Assembly: GCA_049966015.1 (NCBI GenBank)
Contig: JBMFVL010000001.1
Span: 6,000-69,999, forward strand
Direction of reading: 5' to 3'
DNA length: 64,000 nucleotides
Source of the DNA: Thermoplasmata archaeon
GTDB taxonomy: Archaea > Thermoplasmatota > Thermoplasmata > Lutacidiplasmatales > JAMCUS01
Shown: piece after piece, positions 2 to 52,637 of the stretch
How the letters are laid out: the number at the start of each line of letters is the position of its first letter
How positions within the stretch are numbered: position 1 is the first letter of the stretch
Program-made: the position numbers and the translations under genes
The notes under the pieces: generated by a model
Told to the model about the DNA's origin: nothing
Database searches by the model: none
What the model saw: the letters and a program-made list of their open reading frames with translations, nothing else

Positions 2-847
2 ATTGATCCGTTGGGGGAATTTACAGACATAGTAAATAAATTAGGGGGGGAAGTAGTGTATTTGAACACTGAAAAAGGCATAATTAATCCACTAGACCCT
101 AGAACTTCTTGGGGGGATATACATGAAAAAATAATACAAGTTAAAACTCTTTTAAAAACCATTTTTTCCTCACTCAATGATGAAGATTTAAGCAGTTTGG
201 ATAAAGTTTTATTTAATTTGTATAACAAATACAAAGAGCCTACTTTTTCTGATTTGCTTAGCATACTTAAAAATGAAGATATTAAATTGAAAAAAATTTT
301 ATCTACTTTCACTGAAGGATCTTTAGCTAAAAACAATTCACATACTTCAGTTTCTATAAACAAAAATCTAATTTCATTTTCACTTAAAAATATAAATCCT
401 GAGTTATTTTCTTTTTATATCACATTATCATTGAATTTTATATATGGTGTCATAAAAAAAACAAAAGGAAATAAAATTATTATAATTGATGAGGCACATT
501 ATATGCTAATAAATGATAGCACAAGCTGGTTTATGGAATATATGTCTAGGCATGTAAGGCATTATATGTGTGGCATTACCTTTGTTTCACAAAATGCAGA
601 AGATTTTCTATCTAATCATTATGGAAAAACAATTATTAACAATTCCTACATACAACTATTGTTTAGGCATGAGACTGTTAGCGAAAAAATGATTGACTTT
701 TATGGCCTTACATCAAACGACCAGAAATACATTTTGGAATCCAGAGGTGGAAAAAAGGATTCTTATTCAGAAGCTTTGATGAAAATAGGAACAGAGAGGA
801 TACCACTCCGGATTATTTCTACACCTATGGAACAGGAATTAGGTTAA
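2..847 (+). CDS. C-terminal part of an AAA-like ATPase of the VirB4/TrbE/HerA (DUF87) superfamily; the gene runs off the 5' window edge
   Basis: The reading frame is open from the window start. It contains a Walker B-like IIIIDEAHYML motif and a downstream ITFVSQNAEDF motif, typical of the C-terminal halves of conjugative or HerA-type ATPases. The start codon is not in the window. Confidence 0.4.
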   Translation: MDPLGEFTDIVNKLGGEVVYLNTEKGIINPLDPRTSWGDIHEKIIQVKTLLKTIFSSLNDEDLSSLDKVLFNLYNKYKEPTFSDLLSILKNEDIKLKKILSTFTEGSLAKNNSHTSVSINKNLISFSLKNINPELFSFYITLSLNFIYGVIKKTKGNKIIIIDEAHYMLINDSTSWFMEYMSRHVRHYMCGITFVSQNAEDFLSNHYGKTIINNSYIQLLFRHETVSEKMIDFYGLTSNDQKYILESRGGKKDSYSEALMKIGTERIPLRIISTPMEQELG

Positions 848-6501: not shown

Positions 6502-7272
6502 ATGCTTTCACTTTGTTTTACTACGTACAATGTATCTCATATTGTAGGAGAATCCATGGAAAGTATCATTTCACCATTGATTAAATCTAGATATGAATTT
6601 GAGCTTTCTATAGTAGATAATTTGAGTACAGATAATACAGTACAGATCATTAAAAAAATACAGGAAAAATACAAAATAAAGGTTAACATTTATTCAAAAA
6701 AATGTATAAGAGGGGTTGGAAGGCAGGAAGCAGTTAATAGGGCTAATGGGGATTATGTAATCATAGGCATGGACCTAGACCAGATCTATTCAGATGATTG
6801 GATTGTTTACATTGATGAATTTTTCAAGGATCCTTTTTCCCCTTTATTTGCCATTCCAGATATGGCATGGGCCTCATATTTTGCAATAATGCCTAAAGAT
6901 TTGGCATTGAAAAATCCCATGCTTCCTGTCAATATAGCAGAAGATTTAGAATATAAAGAAAGGATTTATAAAAAAGCTAAATGCAGGGAAATGCATGGAA
7001 ATTTTGTTTTGAAGCATATACATGGAAAAATGCATAAACATTTACTCAATAGGTTGAGAAACCTTTTCTATGACTTGAGGGACCATATAGTTTTGGGATA
7101 TGGCCCGTTGACAATTATAGCAGATAGGCTTTTTATTGAAAAAAGGAACCCGTTATATATAGCATTGTACGTCTTTTTTATGCCATATGCAATGTTAAGT
7201 GCTTTAACTTTTTATAGATTGGATTATGAAAGGATATTTACTGGGGGATGGTATAGAAAAAAAAATAAATAG
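6502..7272 (+). CDS. Family 2 glycosyltransferase
   Basis: GT2 N-terminal pattern (TTYNVS ... ELSIVDNLSTDNT ... GDYVIIGMDLD). Confidence 0.55.
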   Translation: MLSLCFTTYNVSHIVGESMESIISPLIKSRYEFELSIVDNLSTDNTVQIIKKIQEKYKIKVNIYSKKCIRGVGRQEAVNRANGDYVIIGMDLDQIYSDDWIVYIDEFFKDPFSPLFAIPDMAWASYFAIMPKDLALKNPMLPVNIAEDLEYKERIYKKAKCREMHGNFVLKHIHGKMHKHLLNRLRNLFYDLRDHIVLGYGPLTIIADRLFIEKRNPLYIALYVFFMPYAMLSALTFYRLDYERIFTGGWYRKKNK

Positions 7273-8226: not shown

Positions 8227-9546
8227 TTATAGAATTCTTGAAATTTCTTTTTTCAATAATTCACCAGATTTGTCGTCCATTGCATACCTTACTCTCAATA
8301 TTGGTTTATTTACATGCACAATCTGGGATAGATTTATAGGCGTACCGGATATTACAACATCTGCATTTATCTTGTTTATGGTATCTTCTAGCTCTTGTAT
8401 TTGCTTTTTACTGTATCCCATAGCCGGCAATATTCCGCTTCCTATCAAGTGTGTATATTTTTTATAAACCTCTGCAATGCTTCCTACTGCGTATGGAACT
8501 GGATCAACAATACTCTTTACACCAAACTGTTTGGCAGCCAATGAAGCCGCGCCAAGTTTCATGCCACCATGGGTAACAGTGGGACCATCTTCCACTATTA
8601 TTGCATTTTTTCCTTTTGCCCCTTCTGAATTTTCCATGGTTATTAAAGACTGCGCTTCAATTACCTTTGCTTTAGGGTTAACTTCTTTCAGGTTGTTCTT
8701 AATAATATCTACGTCACTTTTGTTTGCTGTATTTACCTTATTTATTACTACAATATCTGCCATCCTGAAATTTGTTTCACCTGGATGATATTTTAGTTCG
8801 TGTCCGGCTCTGAACGGGTCTGCCACTACTATGTGCAAGTTTGGTTTGAAAAAGGGAATGTCATTGTTACCACCATCCCATAATATCACATCTGCTTCTT
8901 TTTCCGCTGCTCTTAGGATTTTTTCATAATCTACACCAGCATAAACAACTGTTTTATTTTCAAGATGGTGCTCATATTCTTCCCTTTCCTCTATTGTGCA
9001 CTTGAATTTATCCAAATCTTCAAACGTACTGAATCTTTCAACTGCTTGCTCTACCAGGTTTCCATATGGCATTGGATGCCTTACGACTACAACTTTTTTG
9101 TTCATTGCCCTTAACAGCTGTGCAATCATCCTTGTTGTCTGGCTTTTCCCACTCCCTGTCCTTACTGCACACACTGCTATGACAGGAACTTTAGAAGGCA
9201 GCATAACCTGGCTTGGTGAAAGCATCTTAAAAGACGCACCGTTTGCCAGGGCAATAGATGCACGGTTCATTACGTATTCGTGTGGAACATCGCTATATGA
9301 AAATACAACCTCATCTACCTTATATTTTTTTATCAGGTCAGGCAATTCGTTTTCTGGGTATATTTTAATGCCATTTGGATACATTGGACCGGCCAATTCT
9401 GGTGGATATACCCTGCCTTCTATGTTTGGTATCTGGGTTGCTGTAAATGCAACTACCTCATATTCGTTGTTATTTCTAAAAAAGGTATTAAAATCATGAA
9501 AATCTCTTCCTGCTGCACCCATTATTATTACTTTTTTCTTCACCAT
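8227..9546 (-). CDS. COG2403-family P-loop protein (cyclic 2,3-diphosphoglycerate synthetase-like)
   Basis: N-terminal Rossmann-like segment (KVIIMGAAGRD) and an internal P-loop (VRTGSGKSQTT). The roughly 440-aa size matches cDPGS-like proteins. The upstream Met at 9591 is an alternative start. Confidence 0.45.
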   Translation of the reverse strand: MVKKKVIIMGAAGRDFHDFNTFFRNNNEYEVVAFTATQIPNIEGRVYPPELAGPMYPNGIKIYPENELPDLIKKYKVDEVVFSYSDVPHEYVMNRASIALANGASFKMLSPSQVMLPSKVPVIAVCAVRTGSGKSQTTRMIAQLLRAMNKKVVVVRHPMPYGNLVEQAVERFSTFEDLDKFKCTIEEREEYEHHLENKTVVYAGVDYEKILRAAEKEADVILWDGGNNDIPFFKPNLHIVVADPFRAGHELKYHPGETNFRMADIVVINKVNTANKSDVDIIKNNLKEVNPKAKVIEAQSLITMENSEGAKGKNAIIVEDGPTVTHGGMKLGAASLAAKQFGVKSIVDPVPYAVGSIAEVYKKYTHLIGSGILPAMGYSKKQIQELEDTINKINADVVISGTPINLSQIVHVNKPILRVRYAMDDKSGELLKKEISRIL

Positions 9547-9697
9547 ATAAACACACCTACTCTTTTGCAGAGTATAAAGCGTAAAACTCAATTTAAATTT
9601 TTCCTATGATTTTAAGTATGTAATTTTTTTAAAACAATGTCCATTTTTAGTAAATTTATGCTTTTTATTGATTTTATATAATATACTTGAACAAATA

Positions 9698-10333
9698 TCA
9701 ATTACTAGTGAATAGATAATTACCTTTCATTTCAATGCACTTTTTTATTTTGCCTTTTATTTCTTTGGAGAGTTTATCAGTTTTTTTCAATATTGCAGGA
9801 TACCCTTTTTTAGATAGTTCTATAATATTTTCTAAATCCACTTTGTTTCCTATGCTATAAATATATTTACCATTTTCAACACCTATTATTTCATCTCCAT
9901 CATATAAATAGGAAATGCCTTTTTCTGCTCTTATATTTCCAATTAATTTTGATTTGGCTATTCCTATGGCAGGAGTATCAAGCAACACACCTATTACTGT
10001 TGCAATTCCAGCCCTTCTAGGATGTGCTATGCCCTGACCATCTACTAGTATAAAATCAGGCTTAAAAGGTCTTAAGGCTCTCAACATAGCAGGGGCTTCT
10101 CTTGCAAATAAATATCCAGGTATATATGGTAAGGGGTTGGAGGATAATGCTACGTTATACCTTGAAATTTTTTTTGATTTGTCTATGAATAATGCAATGC
10201 CTATAGCGTAGTTGTGCGTATAGGAAACATCAACGGCTGCAACTTTGCTTATTGCTTCAAGTTTTAAATTTGATATTACAATATTTTTAGAAATTAGCTC
10301 CTGTATTTTTTTATAAAAATACATATTATACAT
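9698..10333 (-). CDS. nfi: Endonuclease V (deoxyinosine 3' endonuclease)
   Basis: Conserved blocks AAVDVSY, PYIPGYLFAREAP and LVDGQGIAHPRRAGIA. Confidence 0.85.
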   Translation of the reverse strand: MYNMYFYKKIQELISKNIVISNLKLEAISKVAAVDVSYTHNYAIGIALFIDKSKKISRYNVALSSNPLPYIPGYLFAREAPAMLRALRPFKPDFILVDGQGIAHPRRAGIATVIGVLLDTPAIGIAKSKLIGNIRAEKGISYLYDGDEIIGVENGKYIYSIGNKVDLENIIELSKKGYPAILKKTDKLSKEIKGKIKKCIEMKGNYLFTSN

Positions 10334-22566: not shown

Positions 22567-22650
22567 GTATTGAGTATTGCATTATAATATTTCTTTTTTT
22601 TTAATTGTTTATCGACAATTTTTATGTTTTTAAAGAACAAAAAAGATTTA

Positions 22651-22797
22651 TGGGAGCACTGGGAATTGAACCCAGGTCGGCGGGTAACTTCTTAGGGGAT
22701 CGATGCTCCAATTAATCATCATTTTTATTCAGATTACCCAAGTTTCTTCTTTTCCCCATAACTGGAGCCCGCTAGGATACCTCTACCCCATGCTCCC
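22651..22797 (-). tRNA. tRNA-Trp (anticodon CCA) with a 76-nt intron in the anticodon loop
   Basis: Minus-strand cloverleaf: acceptor GGGAGCA/TGCTCCC, anticodon stem GCGGG/CCCGC with loop CUCCAG[intron]A, T-arm CTGGG-TTCAATT-CCCAG. The intron (37/38 position) contains AUGAUGA and CUGA motifs. Confidence 0.75.
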
Positions 22798-22908
22798 ATG
22801 CACGTACATATTTTTGTATTGATATTTATAATTTTTTTATAAAATGGGCATAAACGAATCAAAACCAAAAAAATATATTGATATATTAGATATCATGTGT
22901 TGATTCTT

Positions 22909-29121: not shown

Positions 29122-29142
29122 CTTTTAAAATATGTTATGTTT

Positions 29143-29262
29143 AGGTTGGGGGAGCCTTCAAACAAGGCTGAGAGGATCGTGTGAATCGACCCCTATACAC
29201 CTGATCCAGGTAATGCTGGCGTAGGGAAACCCTTGTGTATGGTATACCCCTCCTGGGGATAA
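29143..29262 (+). promoter_or_regulatory. TPP (THI-box) riboswitch
   Basis: Conserved TPP aptamer elements in order: GGGGAGCC ... CTGAGAGG ... ACCCC ... ACCTGATCCAGGTAATGCTGGCGTAGGGAAACCC. The 3' segment CCCCTCCTGGGG lies just upstream of the ATG and could occlude the RBS. Confidence 0.8.
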
Positions 29263-29268
29263 TAAAAA

Positions 29269-30393
29269 ATGGATAAGATTGGTAAAAATTGGAAGTTTAA
29301 GATTTTAGTTGTTGTGGCTATTGTGGTATTAGCGACGGTATTTTATGAAGGATACGTGCTTTATGTACAAAATCAAAAGAGTTCTGAACCTACACTTGTG
29401 ATATACACATATGGATCGCTGTTCAAATACGGTGCCAATCCAAATGAAACAATGAATATCGTTTTCGGTACATTTGAAAAGAAATACCATGTAAATATAG
29501 AGATAGAATACCTGAATAACATTCTCCAGACTTTAGAATCCCAAAAATCGAATCCTCAGGCAGACCTTGTAATTGGTTTAAGTAATGTAGAGGCACCAAC
29601 AGCAATTGAGAATGGGTTATTGGATCCGTATAACTATACTAACGATATTCCTTCCTTTTTGATCAATGGCCTTAGCAGCACCCACTACCTTACACCATAT
29701 GAATATTCATATTTAGCAATTGACTATACCATGTCCTTTTATAACCAGACCAATGGAAATGTTAGCCATTCTAATTTTTTGAATTTCTTAAACAGTACAT
29801 GGGCAAAAAATTTAATTTTAGAATCTCCGTTGACAGATACAACAGGCACAAATTTTTTGATATGGCAGATCGCTTTCTATGAATATGTACTTCACGACAA
29901 TAATTGGATTAGCTGGTGGAAAAGCATAAAGAATTATGCACTGATTGAAAGTGACTGGAGTACTGCCTTTAACCTTTTTACCACAAGTAATAATCCCCAA
30001 CAGCTCGTAGCCAGTTATTCTACTGACCCAGCTTATGAAATATACAACAACGGTGCGATGAACGGTACATTTAGCTATAACAGCACATTGTCTTATTATA
30101 ACAATACATATTACGGTTGGGATACTATATTCGGTATAGGAATAGTGCATGGTTCCACCCATTTGCTTTTGGACCAGGAATTTATCAACTGGTTTTTAAG
30201 CGGAACTGTACAATCTCAAATTCCTTTAAATGAATGGGCATACCCTGCAAATAATACAGTTATGTTACCTCCTGCATATAAATATGCCGTGAATCCCTCT
30301 AATGTTGTTCCTTTAAACAATTACCTTACACAACAACAAATATATTCAAACATGACATCGTGGTTAGAACAATGGCAATTAGCAATGAGTTGA
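29269..30393 (+). CDS. ABC transporter substrate-binding protein (thiamine/TbpA-like), membrane-anchored
   Basis: N-terminal TM anchor plus periplasmic-binding fold. First gene after the TPP riboswitch, followed by a permease and an ATPase. Confidence 0.6.
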   Translation: MDKIGKNWKFKILVVVAIVVLATVFYEGYVLYVQNQKSSEPTLVIYTYGSLFKYGANPNETMNIVFGTFEKKYHVNIEIEYLNNILQTLESQKSNPQADLVIGLSNVEAPTAIENGLLDPYNYTNDIPSFLINGLSSTHYLTPYEYSYLAIDYTMSFYNQTNGNVSHSNFLNFLNSTWAKNLILESPLTDTTGTNFLIWQIAFYEYVLHDNNWISWWKSIKNYALIESDWSTAFNLFTTSNNPQQLVASYSTDPAYEIYNNGAMNGTFSYNSTLSYYNNTYYGWDTIFGIGIVHGSTHLLLDQEFINWFLSGTVQSQIPLNEWAYPANNTVMLPPAYKYAVNPSNVVPLNNYLTQQQIYSNMTSWLEQWQLAMS

Positions 30394-33435: not shown

Positions 33436-36400
33436 TTACATTGCCGGAGGCTGTTGCTGGTTCTGGTCTTGTACTGGAGGTGCCTGTTGCTCTGTGGGTT
33501 GTGCTTGCTCAGGTGCTGGGGGTGCTGTTGTGGGGGATTTGCCCTTTTTCTTCATCATCATGAATACTGCGACAACAATGATGACAATTATTACAATCAC
33601 TACTACTGCGTATATCAGATCATTGTTGCTGCTTGATGATGAGGTTGTAGTCTTGGTCGGTACTGTTGTGGTAACGGTTATTGTAACAGTGTTTGTTTTT
33701 ATTGTTGTACCTGCACTGTCTGTAACATTTACGTATGCTGTGTATGTTCCTGCCTTTGCATATTTATATGTGGTTGCGTTAGAAGAACTTGTCGTTGTGT
33801 TTCCATTTCCGAAGTAGTACTTGTATGTGTATGGAGCTACACCACCCTGGGCTGTAACATTGAAGTATACTGTTCCGTTTACAATTACGCTTGTTGGAGA
33901 TACCGTTAAAGTAGCTGTCAGCGGAGCAATCACTTTGGATATAACCAGTACATATTGTTGCTCCGTGGGTATGGGCATACCCTTGTAAGTGCTTGTTGCA
34001 TTGACCAATATACTTGTGTTGGCAGGAGTTGATGAACTAGTGCTTACAGTTACTTCAACAAAACCAGTTGCGTTGGTAGTTCCACTTGTAGCTGATAAGG
34101 ATATACCGTTTGCAGAGGGGGAAATGTAATAGCCACTCTGGTTAAGGGCAGCCAAGCTCAAAGATACAGGCATATTTGCCATCGGGCTACCTACCTGGTT
34201 AAGTATTTGGGCAGATATGTTAACGCTCTTTCCAATTACAACTACTCCACTTGAAGCATGTACATTTAGCATTGGCTGGTTATATGCCAGCGTTGTTCCT
34301 TGCTGCTCTATTGCAATTGAATTGAAACCGCTTATAGGACCGGCACCACCTGCAAATACCGTAGCTGTTAAGTAAAACTCTACGTTGGGTATTAGAGGTG
34401 TAAAGGCAGGCCATCCACCTGGTACCATGTTATACGTTTTCTTATTCTGTACGTATTTGTAGAAAACAGATCCGTTGAAGGTTATGTTGATGTACCCTGC
34501 AGATGTTGTATTTACAAATAGCTCATAGTTGCTGTCTACCACCTTTGTTCCTGTTATCGGGTTGGAAGAATCCTTTATTGCCTGGTACTGTACATTTGTT
34601 CCTGCTGTTACTGTTATGTTGCCCTGGTACCTGCCTGTGAGCTGTGTTAAGGTAAGCATGACAGGAGTGTTACTCACTGGCTTTCCTCCAGATGTAACAT
34701 GTATGCTTATCGGAATACTCTGATTCCAGTTTACGTTGTAAAAGTTGTTTGTGGGTGTAATCGTTGATGATACCACTACATTATCTGGTGTAGCACCACC
34801 TGCTGAAAATGGAATGTCTGTAAACTGGTTGCCTACATTGGGTAGGTAAGCTTCAAATCCACCTGCCAATGAAAGGTAAGCAGATGCCGCATGGAATCCC
34901 GATGGCTGTACAAACCCTTTGGAACCTACGAAATTGTAGTAGGACAACGTATTGTACCCGCTTGCAGCAGTTGCAAAGAACTCTAAAGGTACAGGGGATG
35001 TGCTTGTTACGCCTGCATAATTAACCCAGTTGACTTGCCTCATTATACCATATGCACCACCGGTAATCCACAAATAAAACACTTGCTGGTATGTGGGCAT
35101 GAAGGTATTCAATGCACTGCTTAGTGAATAACTTATATTGGCGTATCCAGCTGCATTGGTTGTTATTGAGTTTGTTTGTGTAGTCCCGTTCCAGAACATT
35201 GAACTATCGTAATACTGATAACCACTGGATAAAGCAGAGGGATTCACTATTCCTGGGAATCCATCTAGAACAGCAGGGCTTACTTGCTGGAAAGTAACTG
35301 GAATGTTTGGTTCACCTTTTCCAGTTGCTGTATTGACAGCCCTTACTACCACTGACAAATTTGAACTCAGACCTGCTGTCGGACTTAAGGATACAACTTG
35401 AAGTGTGTATGGAGGAACAGCACTGTTGCCAACCATGACCTCTGTGTTGTTTATAGCCATGTTCTCATATCCACCTTTGTAGGCTGTTGCAGTTATGTTA
35501 ACCAGTGTTCCTGGCATTGTGTTCTTTGCCGTGAACTCAAATTTGGCTATACCATTAGCATTTGTCAAACCACCTGGAACAGGGATCAATCCCTGGTCGG
35601 AGAACATACCAACCGTTGCTGCCACTACTGGCTTGCCATTAGAAGTTACCGATACGTTGAACGTATATGTTTGCCCTGGCCATACCGTATTGTTTGCTGG
35701 CAATCCGCTTATTGAAATATTCAGTTCTGGAAGATATCCAGGTATGAAAGACAATGGGGACACAACACCAGAAGCGTTTGTCAATGTCAAATATCCTGTA
35801 GAATTGGATATTGCATGAACTTGCTGCAATAATATCCCGCTTGTATCAAAATCCATGTAAGCAACCCCTGCTGGGAAATTACCTGCAGAAGGGTTTAGAT
35901 TCCATATAACTACAGAGGCATTTGCAACGCCTTTTCCACTGCTATCCACTACCCTGTAGGGAAGCACGTTGGTTGTGTTCATTGCCATTGTCGGCAATGT
36001 CCCGTGTGTTAATATCATCGTATTGCCTTCTACTGTCAGTGCAACGCTTGCATATGTAGGTACATACGTCACAGTGGATGTTGAATTTTCTGTTATCGAT
36101 GCCTGCAAAGTCACTTTATCAGTTGCAGCAGGTGGCAATTGCGAGAAGTTGAACTGGTCAGTACCATACGTGCCGTACACCTGCTGGACTATTCCATTAA
36201 CAATGGAGAAGTTCGTGGTGAACTGCCCTGCAATGTTGGTTGTACCTGTTTTGGAACCGAAGAACACCAATCCCAGTGGGTTGGCGCTCATTGACACTGT
36301 TGCACCCTGTATTGGCATACCATTGTCACCTGTAACGGTAACTGTTACATTTCCTGTGCTTCCACCTTTATATACATTCACGTTCTGGTCCAACTTAATG

Positions 36401-38370
36401 GTTGCATGCAAATGCACAGTAGTACTGCTTGCCACAGGGGCTTTGTAATTGCTCGGAACCAAGTTAGCAAAAGTCCACCCGTTGTTAACAGCAGGTGATG
36501 ATGAAGGACTTGCTACCCATCCACTCCAGTGCATAATACTGTAGGCATCTATATCATCAGATGAGTACAGCAATATGTATGGCAACTGCACTGCCAGTAT
36601 ACCTTCGGCCTCCTTTATTTCAGCTTGCCTTATAGAGGGATTCATTTGACTGTTGGATTCCGCAAGCAAATTATCAAAGGTTGCATTGAAGAACCCTTCG
36701 TAATTTGCCCCCACAGGAGGTTGCTGGCTTGATTGGAATAAGGAATATAACCAGGATGAGGGATCCCCTCCTGGTGCACTTAAAACCCATCCAAGGATGA
36801 ACATATCAAAGTTGTATGGGGGTGTGCTTATATCTGCAACGATTACGTTGAAATCCGTTGGTACTGCTTGCGCATCCAATCCAGCTTCTTGCATCCATTG
36901 CTGTATGTATTGCGCTGTGGTTGCCCTTATCGGATCGTATGATGCAGGTGGAACCAGTATGGGTATCTGCAAAACCGTGCCGTTGTACTCAAAGTAATTG
37001 TTTGGACCTGGTGTTTGCCCAGCATGCTGCAGAGTCATCCCAGGAACGGCCAACAGATCTTTATCTGCCTGGGTAATGTTGAATGTGTAAGGATACTGAG
37101 AATTTACAGATGCATTGTAATACGCCCCAGACATCGGTAATACTACATTTGTACCAGTTATACCGTATCCTTGAAGTATATTGGATAATATAAATTGCTT
37201 GTTTACCAAGTGTGCTACAGCTTGCCTGAATCCTATGTAATTAAATGGGGCTCTTCTCAAATTGAACGTCATGTAAAAGAACCCGAAAGAAGGTTCTAAA
37301 GATAATCCTATACCAGGAGTGGATTGCAATTGGCTTACGTATGAAGGAGGTATGGACCAGTCTACCAAATCGATTTCACCGCTCATCAATGCCAATACCG
37401 CTGAAGTAGTAGAACCGTATAATACATATTGGACTTCATTCATATGTGCCTGGAAAGAACCCATCCAGTAGTTGGGGTTGGCGTACATTATTGCACCTAC
37501 GTTAGGAGTCCATCCGCCTTGGTAAAACTGACCGCTTCCTATATCAGCTAAAGCGTACTTTGTACCACCTACACTAATATAACCACCATCCCAGGTGCTT
37601 ACAGCCCCATACATCTCACTGTTGTTATTAGACCACATGTGGTTCTGCCATATTTTTCCTGGTATCAGGTATTCAGTAAGGGTCATGTAATAAAACGGAG
37701 CATATGGTTGATTTAAATTGAAGACTACTACATTTCCAGTTGGACCTTTTGGCATCGTTACATTAGCTACAAATATACCTGCAGGTGTGCCTGTTGATAT
37801 TGTACCGTTTGTCAAGTATTTGATTGTGGATGCTGGAACAGGGCTACCAGATGGATTTACAGCTAATGGCAGCAGAGAGGGATTTGTGTTGGGTGAATTT
37901 ATGCCTACCTGGTATGAAACAAAAACATCCCATGCATCCAAATGTGTATTTGCAACTGATGATGCTGTTGCGTTGGTCATCATTGCCTGTGGAACGATCC
38001 ATGTAATGTTGGTTGCAAAGGTTACTGTGAATGATGTGAAGTTAGCATTTGGGGTTATGCTTGTGGCAGCCCAGTTCATGTAACCGTTGTTAGATATTGG
38101 AATGCTTGTTAACGAGTCGTAGAAGTAACCATAATAATTGGCATCCCATATACTGTTATCCAGTGGATTGAATGGATTCAATCCCGCAAAATCTTGTTGG
38201 TTACCAATAGTAAGAGTGCCGCTCGGTTTAATGTTGCTTTTAGGCTGTGCTGGATGTATAACCTGGTTTATTTTTGCAACATTAGGGGATGCAGCTGCAC
38301 TCAATGCGCTGCTCAACATTAAAAAAGTCGCTACGAAAGCTAGGCTCAACAATAAGTATCGTTTAATCAT
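33436..38370 (-). CDS. Giant cell-surface glycoprotein (1644 aa): signal peptide, OppA-like family-5 solute-binding domain, Ig/PKD-like repeats, Thr/Ser linker, C-terminal TM anchor and a Q/P-rich cytoplasmic tail
   Basis: Signal peptide MIKRYLLLSLAFVATFLMLSSALSAAAS. The first roughly 650 aa resemble SBP family 5 (GEIDLVDW ... FRQAVAHLVNKQ). A PKD-like repeat lies near the C-terminus (GTVYFNVTAQGGVAPYTYKYYFGNGNT). N-x-S/T sequons are very dense. The C-terminus reads TTTSSSSSNN - hydrophobic helix - KKKGK - QP-rich tail. Confidence 0.6.
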   Translation of the reverse strand: MIKRYLLLSLAFVATFLMLSSALSAAASPNVAKINQVIHPAQPKSNIKPSGTLTIGNQQDFAGLNPFNPLDNSIWDANYYGYFYDSLTSIPISNNGYMNWAATSITPNANFTSFTVTFATNITWIVPQAMMTNATASSVANTHLDAWDVFVSYQVGINSPNTNPSLLPLAVNPSGSPVPASTIKYLTNGTISTGTPAGIFVANVTMPKGPTGNVVVFNLNQPYAPFYYMTLTEYLIPGKIWQNHMWSNNNSEMYGAVSTWDGGYISVGGTKYALADIGSGQFYQGGWTPNVGAIMYANPNYWMGSFQAHMNEVQYVLYGSTTSAVLALMSGEIDLVDWSIPPSYVSQLQSTPGIGLSLEPSFGFFYMTFNLRRAPFNYIGFRQAVAHLVNKQFILSNILQGYGITGTNVVLPMSGAYYNASVNSQYPYTFNITQADKDLLAVPGMTLQHAGQTPGPNNYFEYNGTVLQIPILVPPASYDPIRATTAQYIQQWMQEAGLDAQAVPTDFNVIVADISTPPYNFDMFILGWVLSAPGGDPSSWLYSLFQSSQQPPVGANYEGFFNATFDNLLAESNSQMNPSIRQAEIKEAEGILAVQLPYILLYSSDDIDAYSIMHWSGWVASPSSSPAVNNGWTFANLVPSNYKAPVASSTTVHLHATIKLDQNVNVYKGGSTGNVTVTVTGDNGMPIQGATVSMSANPLGLVFFGSKTGTTNIAGQFTTNFSIVNGIVQQVYGTYGTDQFNFSQLPPAATDKVTLQASITENSTSTVTYVPTYASVALTVEGNTMILTHGTLPTMAMNTTNVLPYRVVDSSGKGVANASVVIWNLNPSAGNFPAGVAYMDFDTSGILLQQVHAISNSTGYLTLTNASGVVSPLSFIPGYLPELNISISGLPANNTVWPGQTYTFNVSVTSNGKPVVAATVGMFSDQGLIPVPGGLTNANGIAKFEFTAKNTMPGTLVNITATAYKGGYENMAINNTEVMVGNSAVPPYTLQVVSLSPTAGLSSNLSVVVRAVNTATGKGEPNIPVTFQQVSPAVLDGFPGIVNPSALSSGYQYYDSSMFWNGTTQTNSITTNAAGYANISYSLSSALNTFMPTYQQVFYLWITGGAYGIMRQVNWVNYAGVTSTSPVPLEFFATAASGYNTLSYYNFVGSKGFVQPSGFHAASAYLSLAGGFEAYLPNVGNQFTDIPFSAGGATPDNVVVSSTITPTNNFYNVNWNQSIPISIHVTSGGKPVSNTPVMLTLTQLTGRYQGNITVTAGTNVQYQAIKDSSNPITGTKVVDSNYELFVNTTSAGYINITFNGSVFYKYVQNKKTYNMVPGGWPAFTPLIPNVEFYLTATVFAGGAGPISGFNSIAIEQQGTTLAYNQPMLNVHASSGVVVIGKSVNISAQILNQVGSPMANMPVSLSLAALNQSGYYISPSANGISLSATSGTTNATGFVEVTVSTSSSTPANTSILVNATSTYKGMPIPTEQQYVLVISKVIAPLTATLTVSPTSVIVNGTVYFNVTAQGGVAPYTYKYYFGNGNTTTSSSNATTYKYAKAGTYTAYVNVTDSAGTTIKTNTVTITVTTTVPTKTTTSSSSSNNDLIYAVVVIVIIVIIVVAVFMMMKKKGKSPTTAPPAPEQAQPTEQQAPPVQDQNQQQPPAM

Positions 38371-39437: not shown

Positions 39438-39539
39438 AGCCCCGTAGTGTAGTGGTCAATCATGCGGGACTCTGGAAGTTTATCTGGAGATATCCTGCGA
39501 CACAGGTTCGAATTGAAAAAGAAAATCCTGTCGGGGCTA
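39438..39539 (+). tRNA. tRNA-Gln (probable anticodon CUG) with apparent short insertions/introns
   Basis: Acceptor AGCCCCG/CGGGGCU (A1-U72 is typical of archaeal tRNA-Gln). T-stem ACAGG/CCTGT is perfect but encloses a 20-nt loop TTCGAATTGAAAAAGAAAAT. The anticodon region carries a duplicated CTCTGGA/ATCTGGAGA segment, consistent with a roughly 15-nt intron. Total length 102 nt. Confidence 0.6.
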
Positions 39540-43749: not shown

Positions 43750-44589
43750 ATGAAAAAAATTTTAGTTGTAGGATCAGGCATTATGGGGGCAGGCATTTCA
43801 GAGGTTTGTGCAATAAATGGATATGAAATATATATGTATGATATCCAACAAGCTTTTGTGGATAAAGGAATGGAAAATATAAAGCAAAGCTTAGAAAAAC
43901 TGCACAAAAAAGGGGTTGTTAATGAACAACCAGATGCGATTTTGAGCAGGATAACTCCTACAATTAATTTTAGCAATAACATTAACCCAGATATTATTAT
44001 TGAAGCCGCACCAGAAAACATTTCTATAAAAAAGAAAATTTTTTCAGAAGTATCAAAAACATATTCCAACGTAGAAATACTGGCTTCAACTACTTCTTCT
44101 TTATCTATAACTGAATTGGGATCTGTTACCCCTTTTCCAGACAGGGTAATAGGGCTTCATTTTTTCAATCCTGCTCCGATTATGAAGTTGGTAGAAATCA
44201 TTCCTGGATATATGACATCTAAAAACATTATAGAATCTTCAGAAAAATTCATTAAAACATTAAAGAAGGAGATAAGTTACTCTGCTGATCTTCCTGGTTT
44301 CGTTACATCTCGCATGATTGGGGTTATTGTCAATGAAGCGGCATGGATGTTATATGAATCGGTTTCATCCAAAGAGGAAATAGATAAAGGTATTGTACTT
44401 GGGCTCAACCATCCAATGGGTCCTTTGGCATTGGCAGATATGATAGGAATTGATACAGTATTGAAAATAATAGAGCGTTTATACACTGGCTTTGGAGACC
44501 CTAAATACAGGCCATGCCCTATTCTGTACAATATGGTCTATTCTAATAAGTTGGGCAAAAAAACAGGGGAAGGATTTTATAAATATTGA
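43750..44589 (+). CDS. hbd: 3-hydroxyacyl-CoA (3-hydroxybutyryl-CoA) dehydrogenase
   Basis: N-terminal NAD-binding motif ILVVGSGIMGAGI and 3HCDH C-terminal domain; 279 aa. Confidence 0.8.
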   Translation: MKKILVVGSGIMGAGISEVCAINGYEIYMYDIQQAFVDKGMENIKQSLEKLHKKGVVNEQPDAILSRITPTINFSNNINPDIIIEAAPENISIKKKIFSEVSKTYSNVEILASTTSSLSITELGSVTPFPDRVIGLHFFNPAPIMKLVEIIPGYMTSKNIIESSEKFIKTLKKEISYSADLPGFVTSRMIGVIVNEAAWMLYESVSSKEEIDKGIVLGLNHPMGPLALADMIGIDTVLKIIERLYTGFGDPKYRPCPILYNMVYSNKLGKKTGEGFYKY

Positions 44590-45098
44590 TTTTCTACTAC
44601 CATTTTACCTTTTTCTTTGGGTATGATTTTTAGTTTTCCATTATTATTTTCTTTAATAGCTTTTTCTGGGAATACATCGTGGAGAAATATTGCCAGGGCA
44701 GATATCTCTGAATGTGGTTGGTTGTATATAGCAACATTGTAGTTAGCTTTGAGGTATACTTCAATTGGCACTTTGGTTGCACCTATAACCACTAAAAGGT
44801 TATCCTCTTCTTTTTTAATTTGGTCCTTAACATCCCAGAGAGGTATACCGTACATGGTAAGATGTACAATAACACCTTTCCATGAATTTAATAATGTATG
44901 CCACTTATCCATGCCTTCCACTTGAAATGAACCGCCAAACCGTTCGTTTACACCTTTTATTGTTTTTTCAATACTTTTATCAGGTGGTGAGATGTATATC
45001 CCTCTGGCACCGAGAGCTCTTGCAACCAGTGCAGCATGTGTGGTGACACGCTTATCCCTGTCCATTCTATGACCTATCCTAAGAACATAAATATCCAA
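44577..45098 (-). CDS. tRNA (cytidine56-2'-O)-methyltransferase aTrm56
   Basis: About 170-aa SPOUT protein matching the aTrm56 family (RIGHRMDRDKRVTTHAALVARALGA ... VVIGATKVP). Confidence 0.7.
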   Translation of the reverse strand: MDIYVLRIGHRMDRDKRVTTHAALVARALGARGIYISPPDKSIEKTIKGVNERFGGSFQVEGMDKWHTLLNSWKGVIVHLTMYGIPLWDVKDQIKKEEDNLLVVIGATKVPIEVYLKANYNVAIYNQPHSEISALAIFLHDVFPEKAIKENNNGKLKIIPKEKGKMVVENQYL

Positions 45099-45632: not shown

Positions 45633-45826
45633 TCATTACCGTATGGAGATATTAACTTAAAATTGTTTCTATATATTTTGACCATTCATTTTTAATAATG
45701 AGGTTGTTGAATTGGTTTCTATATGTAATGTATGGGATGTCATGTTGAATAATCAATTGCATATATTTTTGTGAACCTTTGTAAATAATAAACTTTTTAA
45801 GTTAAAACACGATTATGTCTTGGTGT

Positions 45827-45921
45827 GCGGGGGTTCTCGAGCTTGGCCAAAGGGGCAAGGCTTAGGACCTTGTTGCGTAGGCATTCGCCGGTTCAAAAAA
45901 TTGAAAATCCGGCCCCCCGCA
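45827..45921 (+). tRNA. tRNA-Leu (anticodon UAG) with an apparent roughly 10-nt insertion in the T-loop
   Basis: Type II tRNA: acceptor GCGGGGG/CCCCCGC, D-loop AGCTTGGCCAAAG, anticodon stem CAAGG/CCTTG with loop CTTAGGA, long variable arm. T-stem GCCGG/CCGGC encloses a 17-nt loop TTCAAAAAATTGAAAAT. Confidence 0.7.
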
Positions 45922-45986: not shown

Positions 45987-48623
45987 ATGTCAGAAGATAG
46001 CACAGATTATTCTCCACAAAATGTGGAGCCAAAATGGCAACATTATTGGATTGATAATAAAATTTTTAAGTTTGATATCAGTTCGTCAAAACCTGTTTAT
46101 TCAATAGATAATCCACCTAGGTATACTTCAGGGCCATTGCATATGGGTCATGCTATAGGCTATTCTTTGATAGATATTGTAGCACGGTACAAACGTATGA
46201 GAGGTTATAATGTGTTCTTGCCTTTGTGCTTTGATGGCAATGGTATGCCTATAGAAGTAAAAGTTGAAAAAGAATTTTCAGTTAATAAAAACAATACAGA
46301 TAGGGATACATTGGTAAAGATGTGCTCGGATTATTCAAATTCAAATATAAAAGAGATGAAAGAGCAGTTCATAAAACTGGGAATAATGATGGATGAAAGT
46401 TTATATTACCAAACAGATAGCCCCGAATACAGAAAGTTTACTCAAATTACTTTTTTAAAGTTATATGAAAAAGGCCTAGTTTATAGGAAAGAACATCCTG
46501 TTATATGGTGCCCACATTGCGAAACTTCATTGTCAGCAGCCGATGTTGAGTACCATGATGAATCCAAAGAATTGTATTATGTTAAATTTCTAGGGGATGC
46601 TGAATTAGTTATAGCAACTACACGGCCTGAATTATTATCAACTTGCCAGCTTGTAGCAGTACATCCAGATGATGATAGATATAGAAACATCATTGGTAAA
46701 AAATTGAAAGTTCCTTTATTTGGTAGGGAGGTCCCAATAATAGCGGATGATAAAGTAGACCCTGATTTTGGCACAGGGGCTGTTATGATATGCACCTTCG
46801 GTGATAAAACAGATTTATACTGGGCTTATAAGTATAACTTAATTTTTATAAAAGGCATTGATGAAAAAGGCAAACTTACAGACGTTGCCGGAAAATATTC
46901 TGGATTGTACGTAAATGAAGGCAGAAAAGAAGTTGTCAATGATTTGAAAAAAGAAAATTACATTATTGACCAGAAAGTTATTAACCAAAGCGTAGGTACT
47001 TGTTGGAGGTGCCATACTCCTGTAGAATTTATAAACAAAACCAACTGGTTTTTGAAAACATTAGATTTTAAGCAATCCATAAAAGAGTTTAACGAAAAAA
47101 TAATCTGGCACCCAGACTATATGTCCAAAAGGCTTGAATCTTGGGTAGATTCTTTATTGTGGGATTGGTGTATTTCCAGGCAAAGATATTTTGCAACCCC
47201 TATACCTGTATGGATATGCAATAAATGCGATTTTGTATTGCCAGCCAAAGAAGAGGATTGTTATATAAATCCTTTGAAAAAAGAACCATATATTAAAAAA
47301 TGTCCGGTATGTGGAGGGGATATTGTTGGTTCTGATGAAGTATTTGATACATGGATGGATTCAAGCATAACACCCCTTTACAATACTTACTGGAAAAGGG
47401 ATTATGATCTTTTTAAAAAACTGTATCCAATGAGTCTGAGGCCCCAGAGTCATGATATTATAAGAACATGGGTGTTTTATACATTGCTTAGGAGTATCCA
47501 GATTACAAATGAGGCTCCCTGGAAAGAAATAATGATACACGGTTTTATAATGGCACCTGATGGATCGCCTATGCACGCTTCAGCAGGTAATGCAATAGAC
47601 CCTTTGCCAATAATAAGTGAATATGGTGCAGATGCATGGAGGTATTATACGTCTAAATGCAAATTGGGAGAAGATACTGCGTTTCAAATTAAAGATGTGC
47701 ACCATGGCAGAAAATTTGCTAACAAATATTTCAATATTATGAAATTTATATCACTTATGGTTAATTCTAATGGTTCATCGATTGATGTTGTAAATGAATA
47801 TATCATGCCACTTACAGATCGGTGGATTTTGTCTAGATACAGTGCTGTTTTGGAGGAAGTAACAGATTTCTATGATTCATACCAGTTTGACAAAGCAATA
47901 GCGTCAATAGAAAATTTCACCTGGCACGAGTTTGCTGATTTTTACATCGAAATGGTTAAAAAACGTGCTAAAGCAGGAGATAAAAATGCCCTTTATACGC
48001 TTTACAAAATAGGATTTGGAATAACACAAATGCTTGCACCCATAATGCCACATGTAACTGAAGATGTATTCCAGGAGATATTTAGAAAAGGTTATGCTTT
48101 TGATAGCATAGGGGTTACATTATGGAATGAATATTCATTTTTTGATAAAGAGGCCGTTAAAAAAGGAGAAATTGTTAAAAAGATTGTTTCCTCTGTGAGG
48201 GAGTTTAGTGGGGAAAAAAGAGTCCATAAGTTTAAGAAAATCATTTTGGTAGGGGAGATGGATCAAGAAATCAAGGAGGAAATTTTGGGGTTAAAGCATG
48301 TATTGTTATGTGATAATATAGAAATAAAAAATGCCGTGCAAACACATCAATTGCCTGTCAGTATAAAACTGAAAATGGATATTATAGGTAAGGAATATAG
48401 AAACAATACTATGAAAATTGTTTCATTGGTTTCTTCTAAATCCCTTGATGATTTATACAGTAACTTAAAGCAAAATGGGTATTTAGAACTCAAATTGGAG
48501 AATGATACAATAAGACTCCCTATTGATTATTTCAATATCCAGTTAATGAATTCAATCGACTCCGATAAGGTAGAAAAAGTAGATTCATCTCTTAACGACA
48601 TTTCAATTTATGCATCTTATTGA
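45987..48623 (+). CDS. leuS: Leucyl-tRNA synthetase-like class I aaRS (archaeal LeuRS architecture) with a degenerate KMSKS motif
   Basis: HIGH motif present (PLHMGHAIGY), and archaeal LeuRS-like N-terminus (KRMRGYNVFLPLCFDGNGMPIE). At the KMSKS position the sequence reads DGSPMHASAGNAIDP, followed by the conserved YGADAWRYY. The annotated start was moved downstream of the tRNA-Leu gene. Confidence 0.65.
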   Translation: MSEDSTDYSPQNVEPKWQHYWIDNKIFKFDISSSKPVYSIDNPPRYTSGPLHMGHAIGYSLIDIVARYKRMRGYNVFLPLCFDGNGMPIEVKVEKEFSVNKNNTDRDTLVKMCSDYSNSNIKEMKEQFIKLGIMMDESLYYQTDSPEYRKFTQITFLKLYEKGLVYRKEHPVIWCPHCETSLSAADVEYHDESKELYYVKFLGDAELVIATTRPELLSTCQLVAVHPDDDRYRNIIGKKLKVPLFGREVPIIADDKVDPDFGTGAVMICTFGDKTDLYWAYKYNLIFIKGIDEKGKLTDVAGKYSGLYVNEGRKEVVNDLKKENYIIDQKVINQSVGTCWRCHTPVEFINKTNWFLKTLDFKQSIKEFNEKIIWHPDYMSKRLESWVDSLLWDWCISRQRYFATPIPVWICNKCDFVLPAKEEDCYINPLKKEPYIKKCPVCGGDIVGSDEVFDTWMDSSITPLYNTYWKRDYDLFKKLYPMSLRPQSHDIIRTWVFYTLLRSIQITNEAPWKEIMIHGFIMAPDGSPMHASAGNAIDPLPIISEYGADAWRYYTSKCKLGEDTAFQIKDVHHGRKFANKYFNIMKFISLMVNSNGSSIDVVNEYIMPLTDRWILSRYSAVLEEVTDFYDSYQFDKAIASIENFTWHEFADFYIEMVKKRAKAGDKNALYTLYKIGFGITQMLAPIMPHVTEDVFQEIFRKGYAFDSIGVTLWNEYSFFDKEAVKKGEIVKKIVSSVREFSGEKRVHKFKKIILVGEMDQEIKEEILGLKHVLLCDNIEIKNAVQTHQLPVSIKLKMDIIGKEYRNNTMKIVSLVSSKSLDDLYSNLKQNGYLELKLENDTIRLPIDYFNIQLMNSIDSDKVEKVDSSLNDISIYASY

Positions 48624-52552: not shown

Positions 52553-52637
52553 GCAGGGGTAGTCAAGCTTGGTCAAAGGCGCCAGACTAAGGATCTGGTC
52601 TTATAGAAGTCCGTGAGTTCAAATCTCACCCCCTGCA
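52553..52637 (+). tRNA. tRNA-Leu (type II); the anticodon loop reads CUAAGGA, so the apparent anticodon is AAG
   Basis: Acceptor GCAGGGG/CCCCTGC, D-loop AGCTTGGTCAAAG, anticodon stem CCAGA/TCTGG, long variable arm, T-arm GTGAG-TTCAAAT-CTCAC. Confidence 0.7.

Follow-up and report, generated by a model that had tools for sequence, protein, structure and literature searches.

The window analysed here is a stretch of 64,000 nucleotides (nt) from a Thermoplasmata archaeon (assembly GCA_049966015.1, contig JBMFVL010000001.1, positions 6,000 to 69,999), with a GC content of 33%. It encodes a class II tRNA-Leu(UAG) whose T-loop is enlarged by a 10-nt insert, which we propose to be a very short, non-canonical intron. 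The 95-nt pre-tRNA, which includes the discriminator A73 and carries no encoded CCA, reads GCGGGGG TT CTCG AGCTTGGCCAAA GGGG CAAGG CTTAGGA CCTTG TTGCGTAGGCATTC GCCGG TTCAAAAAATTGAAAAT CCGGC CCCCCGC A. It can be drawn with an acceptor stem of 7 base pairs (bp; GCGGGGG/CCCCCGC), a D-arm with G18G19, the anticodon arm CAAGG-CUUAGGA-CCUUG, a variable arm of 14 nt with a 3-bp stem and a 5-bp T-stem (GCCGG/CCGGC) around the 17-nt loop TTCAAAAAATTGAAAAT. An A/T-rich TATA-like box, TTTTTAAG, lies 26-33 nt upstream of the 5' end as a putative promoter and is identical in a syntenic relative. The first-pass annotation had already recognized this tRNA and its 17-nt loop, and both the sequence and the covariation of the cloverleaf with 13 orthologues bear it out. 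The same annotation placed a leuS-like gene 66 bp further downstream; this gene is valS instead, at a distance of 65 nt, as its product scores 917 bits with NCBIfam NF009687 (cutoff 738) and 759 with TIGR00422 (cutoff 612), has homologues named accordingly, and stays far under the cutoffs of the leucyl-tRNA synthetase models.

The unmodified gene is missed by ARAGORN, with and without introns allowed, and by the Rfam tRNA model, for which a search of 191 nt around the gene gave no tRNA match even at E<=10, whereas the intron-less orthologues score 50-53 bits. As the first-pass annotation had anticipated, taking out about 10 nt restores the loop TTCAAAT: once the 10 nt are deleted in silico, and only then, ARAGORN reports tRNA-Leu(tag). 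In the alignment the exons are collinear with those of the relatives and the restored loop is the one that these have.

Conservation of the gene and of its insert

Several relatives retain both the gene and its unusual loop. The contig L001 (JGI Ga0080003_1000106) is syntenic, with 90% identity in the valyl-tRNA synthetase (ValRS) and ~88.5% nucleotide identity overall, and its tRNA-Leu is identical to that of the window. A more distant sister lineage, represented by a Logan assembly (L002) and a metagenome-assembled genome (MAG) from GTDB (L038; JAMCUS01, GCA_023379385.1), has a ValRS with 58% identity and, just upstream of valS, a tRNA-Leu(UAG) with a 20-nt T-loop, TTCAAAATAATATTGAAAAT, that contains a 13-nt insert. 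Its exons differ from those of the window by a compensatory change of G6-C67 to A6-U67, and in its insert UUGAA-AAU is kept while the hairpin loop alone is altered (AAAA to AAUAAUA). The structure thus recurs in independent assemblies, namely two NCBI MAGs, a JGI metagenome, a Logan assembly and a GTDB MAG. Across the alignment with the 13 orthologues 99.7% of the cloverleaf cells pair, ten pairs show compensatory changes, and G18G19, U33, T54-C56 and A58 are conserved, all of which points to clear purifying selection on the gene.

Intron-less versions are by far the more common. When GTDB genomes were scanned for this anticodon-arm pattern at least 120 loci matched, and among the matches listed 113 of 120 have a 7-nt T-loop, TTCAAAT, including the closest look-alikes in the variable arm (L084, L102 and L114); the Leu insert appears among these only in the GTDB MAG of the sister lineage. 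A metagenome scan with a clade-specific tRNA-Leu pattern had the L001 contig as its sole match, and the tRNA-Leu/valS synteny is not conserved in more distant Thermoplasmata. The prevalence of 7-nt loops suggests that the insert is a derived, clade-specific trait of a small and rarely sampled group.

A relaxed splice motif in three tRNAs

The minimum free energy (MFE) fold of the T-arm, ((((((((((....)))))...))))), has -9.7 kcal/mol as against -6.9 for the open loop. In this fold U54-U55-C56-A57(-A58) pairs with (U)UGAA at the 3' end of the insert, giving a central helix (H) of 4 bp, extendable to 5, which is stacked straight on the T-stem and leaves a 3-nt bulge, AA|U60, at the predicted 3' splice site; the T-stem thereby takes the place of the outer helix (h). 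The TTGAA strand of helix H is identical in both sister-lineage sequences, and when the insert is shuffled at least four in-register pairs arise in only 1.6% of the trials. The predicted 5' splice site falls in a hairpin loop of 4-6 nt, and neither a 5' bulge nor an inner helix (h') can form. Archaeal tRNA introns are typically marked by the bulge-helix-bulge (BHB) motif, and the first-pass annotation had suggested looking for one at position 59/60: its strict form, hBHBh', is lacking there, while the 3-nt bulge beside a 4-bp central helix and an outer helix is present. Since the second bulge and h' are absent, the motif belongs with the relaxed hBH or bulge-helix-loop (BHL) type, which is an accepted subclass (PMC3239211, PMC6379350), and the predicted fold supports its exact register with the T-stem. 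The boundaries of the predicted intron can be shifted by as much as 3 nt to the left within a run of A without change to the mature product; because of this run, all registers from 56/57 to 59/60 yield the same tRNA.

Two further tRNAs of the clade carry inserts at the same site. The tRNA-Gln(CUG) of the window is found by the Rfam tRNA model at 41.3 bits with insertions of 19 and 14 nt, and combines a canonical 16-nt intron at 37/38, which can form a 3-4-3 BHB, with a 13-nt T-loop insert, UUGAAAAAGAAAA, in a 20-nt loop, TTCGAATTGAAAAAGAAAAT; ARAGORN calls Gln(ctg) with the 16-nt intron only once the T-loop insert is removed. In L001 its T-loop is identical and its anticodon intron differs at two positions: a bulge nucleotide is substituted, and an A-U pair of the helix has become G-U. 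The Gln T-loop insert can likewise adopt a relaxed hBH fold, with 3 bp of UUC/GAA, a G57.A mismatch and then the bulge AA|U. tRNAs with two introns have been described as a crenarchaeal and thaumarchaeal trait rather than a euryarchaeal one (PMC4090602). The third isoacceptor, a tRNA-Ser(UGA) of the sister lineage, was met while seeking the Gln orthologue beside the methionine aminopeptidase gene, where the synteny proved not to be conserved; it has a 22-nt T-loop, TTCAAATTACAATAAGGAAAAT, with a 15-nt insert, UUACAAUAAGGAAAA, and ARAGORN calls it as Ser(tga) only with these 15 nt taken out. Both inserts appear to be additional members of the same hBH class.

Taken together there are four distinct inserts: AAAUUGAAAA in the Leu gene of the window, AUAAUAUUGAAAA in that of the sister lineage, UUGAAAAAGAAAA in Gln and UUACAAUAAGGAAAA in Ser. 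All four end in GAAAA directly before U60 (GAAAA|U), all four can pair in register with U54-C56/A57, and the AAU bulge of Leu is also present in Gln and Ser. Shuffled inserts pair in register as well as the observed ones in 1.6% of the trials for Leu, 10.6% for Gln and 6.6% for Ser, which gives a joint value of ~1e-4.

Similar arrangements also occur elsewhere among uncultured Thermoplasmata-type lineages, several of which have non-canonical introns. A tRNA of Ca. Haladaptatiplasma (L106), which we read as Lys-UUU from its anticodon loop CUUUUAA, has a D-loop insert and a 29-nt T-loop insert with a perfect 3-4-3 hBHBh' motif ending in CGAAAA|U. The tRNA-Gln(CUG) of Thermoplasmata YF1.bin117 (L120), the same isoacceptor as in the window, has a 33-nt T-loop insert ending in AGAAAC|U and shares the G57.A mismatch with the window Gln. 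D-loop introns are seen in the tRNA-Leu(UAG) of another Thermoplasmata genome (L071, ~240-460, +) and of a member of the Methanonatronarchaeales (L009, ~6600-6760, -). The two long T-loop introns share the insertion site and the YGAA/AGAA + NN|U60 ending with the inserts of the window, and differ from them in their length of 29-33 nt and in having a full inner helix, so that they are strict or near-strict hBHBh' motifs that a narrow-specificity EndA could cut; the window inserts seem to be minimal representatives of this class.

Table 1. Positions of the features discussed (window coordinates unless a contig is named)
Feature	Position	Strand	Basis
tRNA-Leu(UAG), pre-tRNA	45827..45921	+	Sequence, ARAGORN after deletion, covariation
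Exon 1, tRNA positions 1-59 (59/60 register)	45827..45897	+	Collinear with intron-less orthologues
Anticodon TAG in loop CTTAGGA	45863..45865	+	Sequence, ARAGORN
T-stem 5' strand GCCGG, outer helix h	45887..45891	+	Fold, covariation
Helix H 5' strand, U54-A58 (TTCAA)	45892..45896	+	MFE fold
Predicted 10-nt intron AAAUUGAAAA	45898..45907	+	T-loop insert compared with orthologues
Helix H 3' strand, TTGAA, 3' part of predicted intron	45901..45905	+	MFE fold
3-nt bulge AA|U60 with predicted 3' splice site	45906..45908	+	MFE fold
Exon 2: U60, T-stem and acceptor 3' strands, A73	45908..45921	+	Sequence, alignment
T-stem 3' strand CCGGC	45909..45913	+	Fold, covariation
TATA-like box TTTTTAAG, putative promoter	45794..45801	+	Sequence
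valS, valine--tRNA ligase (ATG 45987), context only	45987..48623	+	NCBIfam, homologues
tRNA-Gln(CUG) with two inserts	39438..39539	+	Rfam tRNA, ARAGORN
tRNA-Gln 37/38 intron, 16 nt	39476..39491	+	ARAGORN, fold
tRNA-Gln T-loop insert, 13 nt	39513..39525	+	Fold, sequence
tRNA-Ser(UGA), sister lineage, 15-nt insert	L134 14598-14696 (= L130 8598-8696)	-	ENA ERZ27233557 k141_74622
tRNA with 29-nt T-loop insert	L106 3285-3415	+	
tRNA-Gln(CUG) with 33-nt T-loop insert	L120 1956-2060	-	
tRNA-Trp(CCA)	22650-22798	-	
tRNA-Leu(AAG)	52553-52637	+	
aTrm56	44577-45098	-	NCBIfam, Pfam
TPP riboswitch	29138-29244	+	Rfam RF00059
374-aa open reading frame	29269-30393		
1644-aa protein gene	33436-38370	-	
Partial open reading frame, conjugation-type ATPase matches	11-847	+	

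Splicing and its alternatives

In light of the above observations, we propose, with a probability of roughly 0.8, that the 10-nt Leu insert is a spliced hBH intron at 59/60. In the precursor the UUGAA of the intron would pair with U54-A58 of the T-loop and lengthen the T-stem by a helix of 4-5 bp, with the bulge AA|U60 left on the 3' strand. EndA would cut within this bulge, after AA in the usual geometry, and again across the 4 bp, behind A59 in the small hairpin loop, releasing AAAUUGAAAA. Joining of the exons by an RNA ligase would give the junction GCCGGUUCAAAUCCGGC and a UUCAAAU T-loop able to make the elbow with the conserved G18G19. The cleavage, the ligation and the broad, relaxed-motif specificity of the endonuclease are what we infer from the sequence. 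The canonical introns in Gln (16 nt) and in a tRNA-Trp(CCA) of the window (76 nt) imply that a splicing machinery must exist in the host. By analogy EndA would cut those introns in the 3-nt bulges flanking a 4-bp helix, again with ligation to follow. The T-loop insert has the identical 3' half, a helix and a 3-nt bulge beside a tRNA stem, and differs in lacking the 5' bulge and h', in having its 5' site in a 4-6 nt hairpin loop, and in its place in the T-loop rather than the anticodon loop.

T-loop hBH introns at 59/60 are already well described in Archaea. The pre-tRNA-Cys(GCA) of ARMAN-2 (Ca. Micrarchaeum acidiphilum) contains a 13-nt 59/60 intron with an hBH motif that is cut in vitro by the cognate EndA (PMC3239211). 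It resembles the present case in the T-loop site, the bulge-helix-loop form with the T-stem as outer helix and the short size (13 nt as against 10-15 nt here), and differs in the host, a member of the Micrarchaeota rather than the Thermoplasmatota, in the isoacceptors concerned and in the EndA, an epsilon2 enzyme that has a specific lysine loop. In the Thermoproteales, other Crenarchaeota and the Thaumarchaeota non-canonical and multiple tRNA introns are cut by (alpha-beta)2 EndA (PMC4090602, PMC6379350, PMC8450103). Introns of this kind share with ours the sites outside 37/38, including the T-loop, the relaxed hBH/HBh' motifs, the possibility of two introns per tRNA (as in Gln) and the occurrence in several tRNAs of a genome; they differ in having a known heterotetrameric EndA of broad specificity and in usually being 12-25 nt or longer. 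What is unusual in the window is the 10-nt size, 3 nt below the ARMAN-2 intron and below the published 11-nt minimum, together with the host lineage and the enzyme specificity that is implied; a literature search, limited in coverage, turned up no Thermoplasmatota for which non-canonical tRNA introns had been reported.

Several points weigh against splicing. Helix H cannot covary, since the T-loop, which supplies its 5' strand, does not vary and the Leu genes come in only two distinct sequences. The insert lies below the range of 11-129 nt that a 2014 review cites for archaeal tRNA introns, and the same review gives the Euryarchaeota single, strict-BHB introns at 37/38 (PMC4090602). A relaxed motif needs a broad-specificity enzyme, and such motifs are, by published accounts, cut efficiently only by the (alpha-beta)2 and epsilon2 enzymes; the EndA of Thermoplasma acidophilum is of the alpha'2 type with narrow specificity (PMC6379350), and the alpha'2 EndA of A. 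fulgidus barely cleaves an ARMAN T-loop hBH intron (PMC3488258). No EndA (PF01974) was found in the window (Pfam, 58 open reading frames of >=70 aa) or in the gene tables of ~100 kb of clade sequence. Lastly, the central helices of Gln and Ser have only 3 bp and an R.R mismatch and are no more stable than the open loop.

The poor performance expected of a Thermoplasmata alpha'2 EndA on T-loop hBH substrates, the size below the described range and the marginal Gln and Ser helices would all be accommodated if the insert were kept and the mature tRNA-Leu had a truly expanded 17-nt T-loop, the more so as positions 59/60 bulge from the T-loop fold and might tolerate additional nucleotides. Yet a functionless expansion would not explain why all four inserts place GAA in register with U54-C56 and end in exactly AA|U, nor why the change between the lineages is restricted to the hairpin loop. 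Pairing would moreover sequester the U54-A58 needed for the elbow, even though G18G19 and TTCAAAT are conserved, and where other Thermoplasmata have longer inserts at this site, these are textbook BHB introns; we regard retention in Leu as quite improbable. Taken over Leu(UAG), Gln(CUG) and Ser(UGA) together, it is unlikely that the inserts leave by no conventional route, whether because loops of 17-22 nt are kept or because they are cut by an endonuclease that gained relaxed specificity independently of the (alpha-beta)2 and epsilon2 forms. Self-splicing of the group I or II type was rejected for the Leu insert, as 10 nt is far too short. That the tRNA finders fail to call the gene would also fit a decaying pseudogene or an assembly artefact, which is very hard to reconcile with stems that are all intact, with 99.7% pairing and compensatory changes, one of them within the clade, with the recurrence of the same structure in the independent assemblies named above, and with a window in which no second tRNA-Leu(UAG) was found.

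A separate matter is the origin of the inserts, for which the first-pass annotation had offered either a family of short T-loop introns or a small element recurrently targeting T-loops. The former is upheld by the hBH fold at 59/60, the conserved helix and bulge, and the third case in Ser(UGA). The latter, with the Leu, Gln and Ser inserts as copies of one mobile or transposed intron, is compatible with splicing and could draw on the occurrence in three isoacceptors of one small clade, at the same site and all with the GAAAA end, on the stretch AUUGAAAA common to Leu and Gln, and on the intron transposition inferred in the Thermoproteales from similarity between introns (PMC4090602). There the similarity supports transposition; here it is confined to the end constrained by pairing. 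As the first-pass annotation had noticed, the 8-mer ATTGAAAA is indeed found in both the Leu and the Gln T-loops, and it is weak evidence alone: it adjoins the 3' splice site in Leu and the 5' splice site in Gln, which speaks against positional homology of its two copies. It is also a common word of this A+T-rich genome, with 32 occurrences in the window as against ~8 expected from base composition, and in 12-17% of simulations an 8-mer is shared between two inserts of matching composition. Pairing to UUCRA with the AA bulge accounts for UGAAAA, and with the A-richness it appears to account well enough for the shared 8-mer; the common GAAAA|U end, and with it much of ATTGAAAA, follows from the requirement for pairing with UUCR and for the AA bulge. 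The Ser insert shares only this end, and the inserts seem to have in common only what pairing to U54-U55-C56-R57 and the bulge demand, a likeness no greater than such pairing and an A-rich composition would yield. Neither flanking repeats nor duplicated tRNA 3' ends were found in the window, and the five matches to the T-arm-plus-insert pattern in viral contigs are all coding sequence with no tRNA. An integration scar was also rejected, there being no second copy of a tRNA segment of >=12 nt in the window except one A-rich 12-mer. A mobile origin is unlikely and unsupported; the inserts are too short to settle homology either way, and nothing requires a mobile element.

Genomic context and implications

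The host is an uncultured Thermoplasmatota archaeon: homologues of its ValRS and methionine aminopeptidase are all from Thermoplasmata/Thermoplasmatota, and the window proteins include archaeal markers in Pfam (aTrm56, TFIIB, family B polymerase, prefoldin and DUF835). The ValRS of the NCBI MAGs GCA_049967995.1 and GCA_049966895.1 is identical to that of the window, and the best homologues outside the clade, named Methanomassiliicoccales or Thermoplasmata, have ~50% identity. A custom scan tolerant of long T-loops gave five tRNAs in the window: Thr(GGU) and Leu(AAG) without inserts, Trp(CCA) with its 76-nt intron at 37/38, Gln(CUG) with two inserts and Leu(UAG) with the T-loop insert. The tRNA-Trp is missed by Rfam, and by ARAGORN without intron mode. 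Archaeal tRNA-Trp introns are known to contain a nested box C/D guide RNA. The CUGA and UGAUGA motifs of this intron, together with a UGGAGC stretch complementary to its own anticodon region, would fit such an RNA. The tRNA-Leu(AAG) has the anticodon loop CUAAGGA with A34, unusual for Archaea; a tRNA-Leu(AAG) was reported in ARMAN-4/-5 by Fujishima et al. 2011 (PMC3239211).

Upstream of the tRNA-Leu(UAG), at 730 nt, lies a gene for aTrm56, the tRNA C56 2'-O-methyltransferase that acts on the T-loop, just under its NCBIfam equivalog cutoff (209.6 as against 223 bits); its closeness is probably coincidental. In L001 ~1 kb (8789-9798) replaces ~100 nt of the window (45682-45784) and ends 42 nt upstream of the tRNA-Leu; it contains a degraded TnpB-like open reading frame (Pfam Cas12f1-like_TNB) and is an IS200/605-type remnant beside the tRNA rather than within it. 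In the sister lineage (L132/L133/L134, from ~11000) the methionine aminopeptidase gene is directly followed downstream by an IS605 OrfB/TnpB gene, and as the contexts beyond it vary by assembly (DNA ligase, eIF-2B/ArgRS or helicase/citrate synthase), it marks a strain-level rearrangement breakpoint. Elsewhere in the window, a thiamine pyrophosphate (TPP) riboswitch (72 bits) precedes a 374-aa open reading frame with no Pfam match, followed by an ABC permease and ATPase, which probably form an operon for thiamine-related uptake. The gene for a 1644-aa protein with SBP_bac_5, Big_1 and PKD domains lies in a stretch of 43-44% GC, the window having otherwise 30-35%, and a partial open reading frame at the window start, with TraG P-loop and AAA_10 matches, may mark the border of an integrated element.

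The immediate consequence concerns annotation. tRNA-Leu(UAG) escapes both ARAGORN and the Rfam tRNA model, and Gln(CUG) and the Ser(UGA) of the relative also escape ARAGORN, so that MAGs of the clade will appear to lack essential decoders; such seeming absences can skew completeness estimates or invite false ideas of codon reassignment. Furthermore, reviews describe lineages of the euryarchaeal type as having single strict-BHB introns at 37/38 and narrow alpha4 or alpha'2 endonucleases, whereas a tRNA with two introns and relaxed T-loop introns in this clade lead us to expect an EndA of broadened specificity. If spliced, the 10-nt Leu intron would also slightly lower the known size limit of an EndA substrate.

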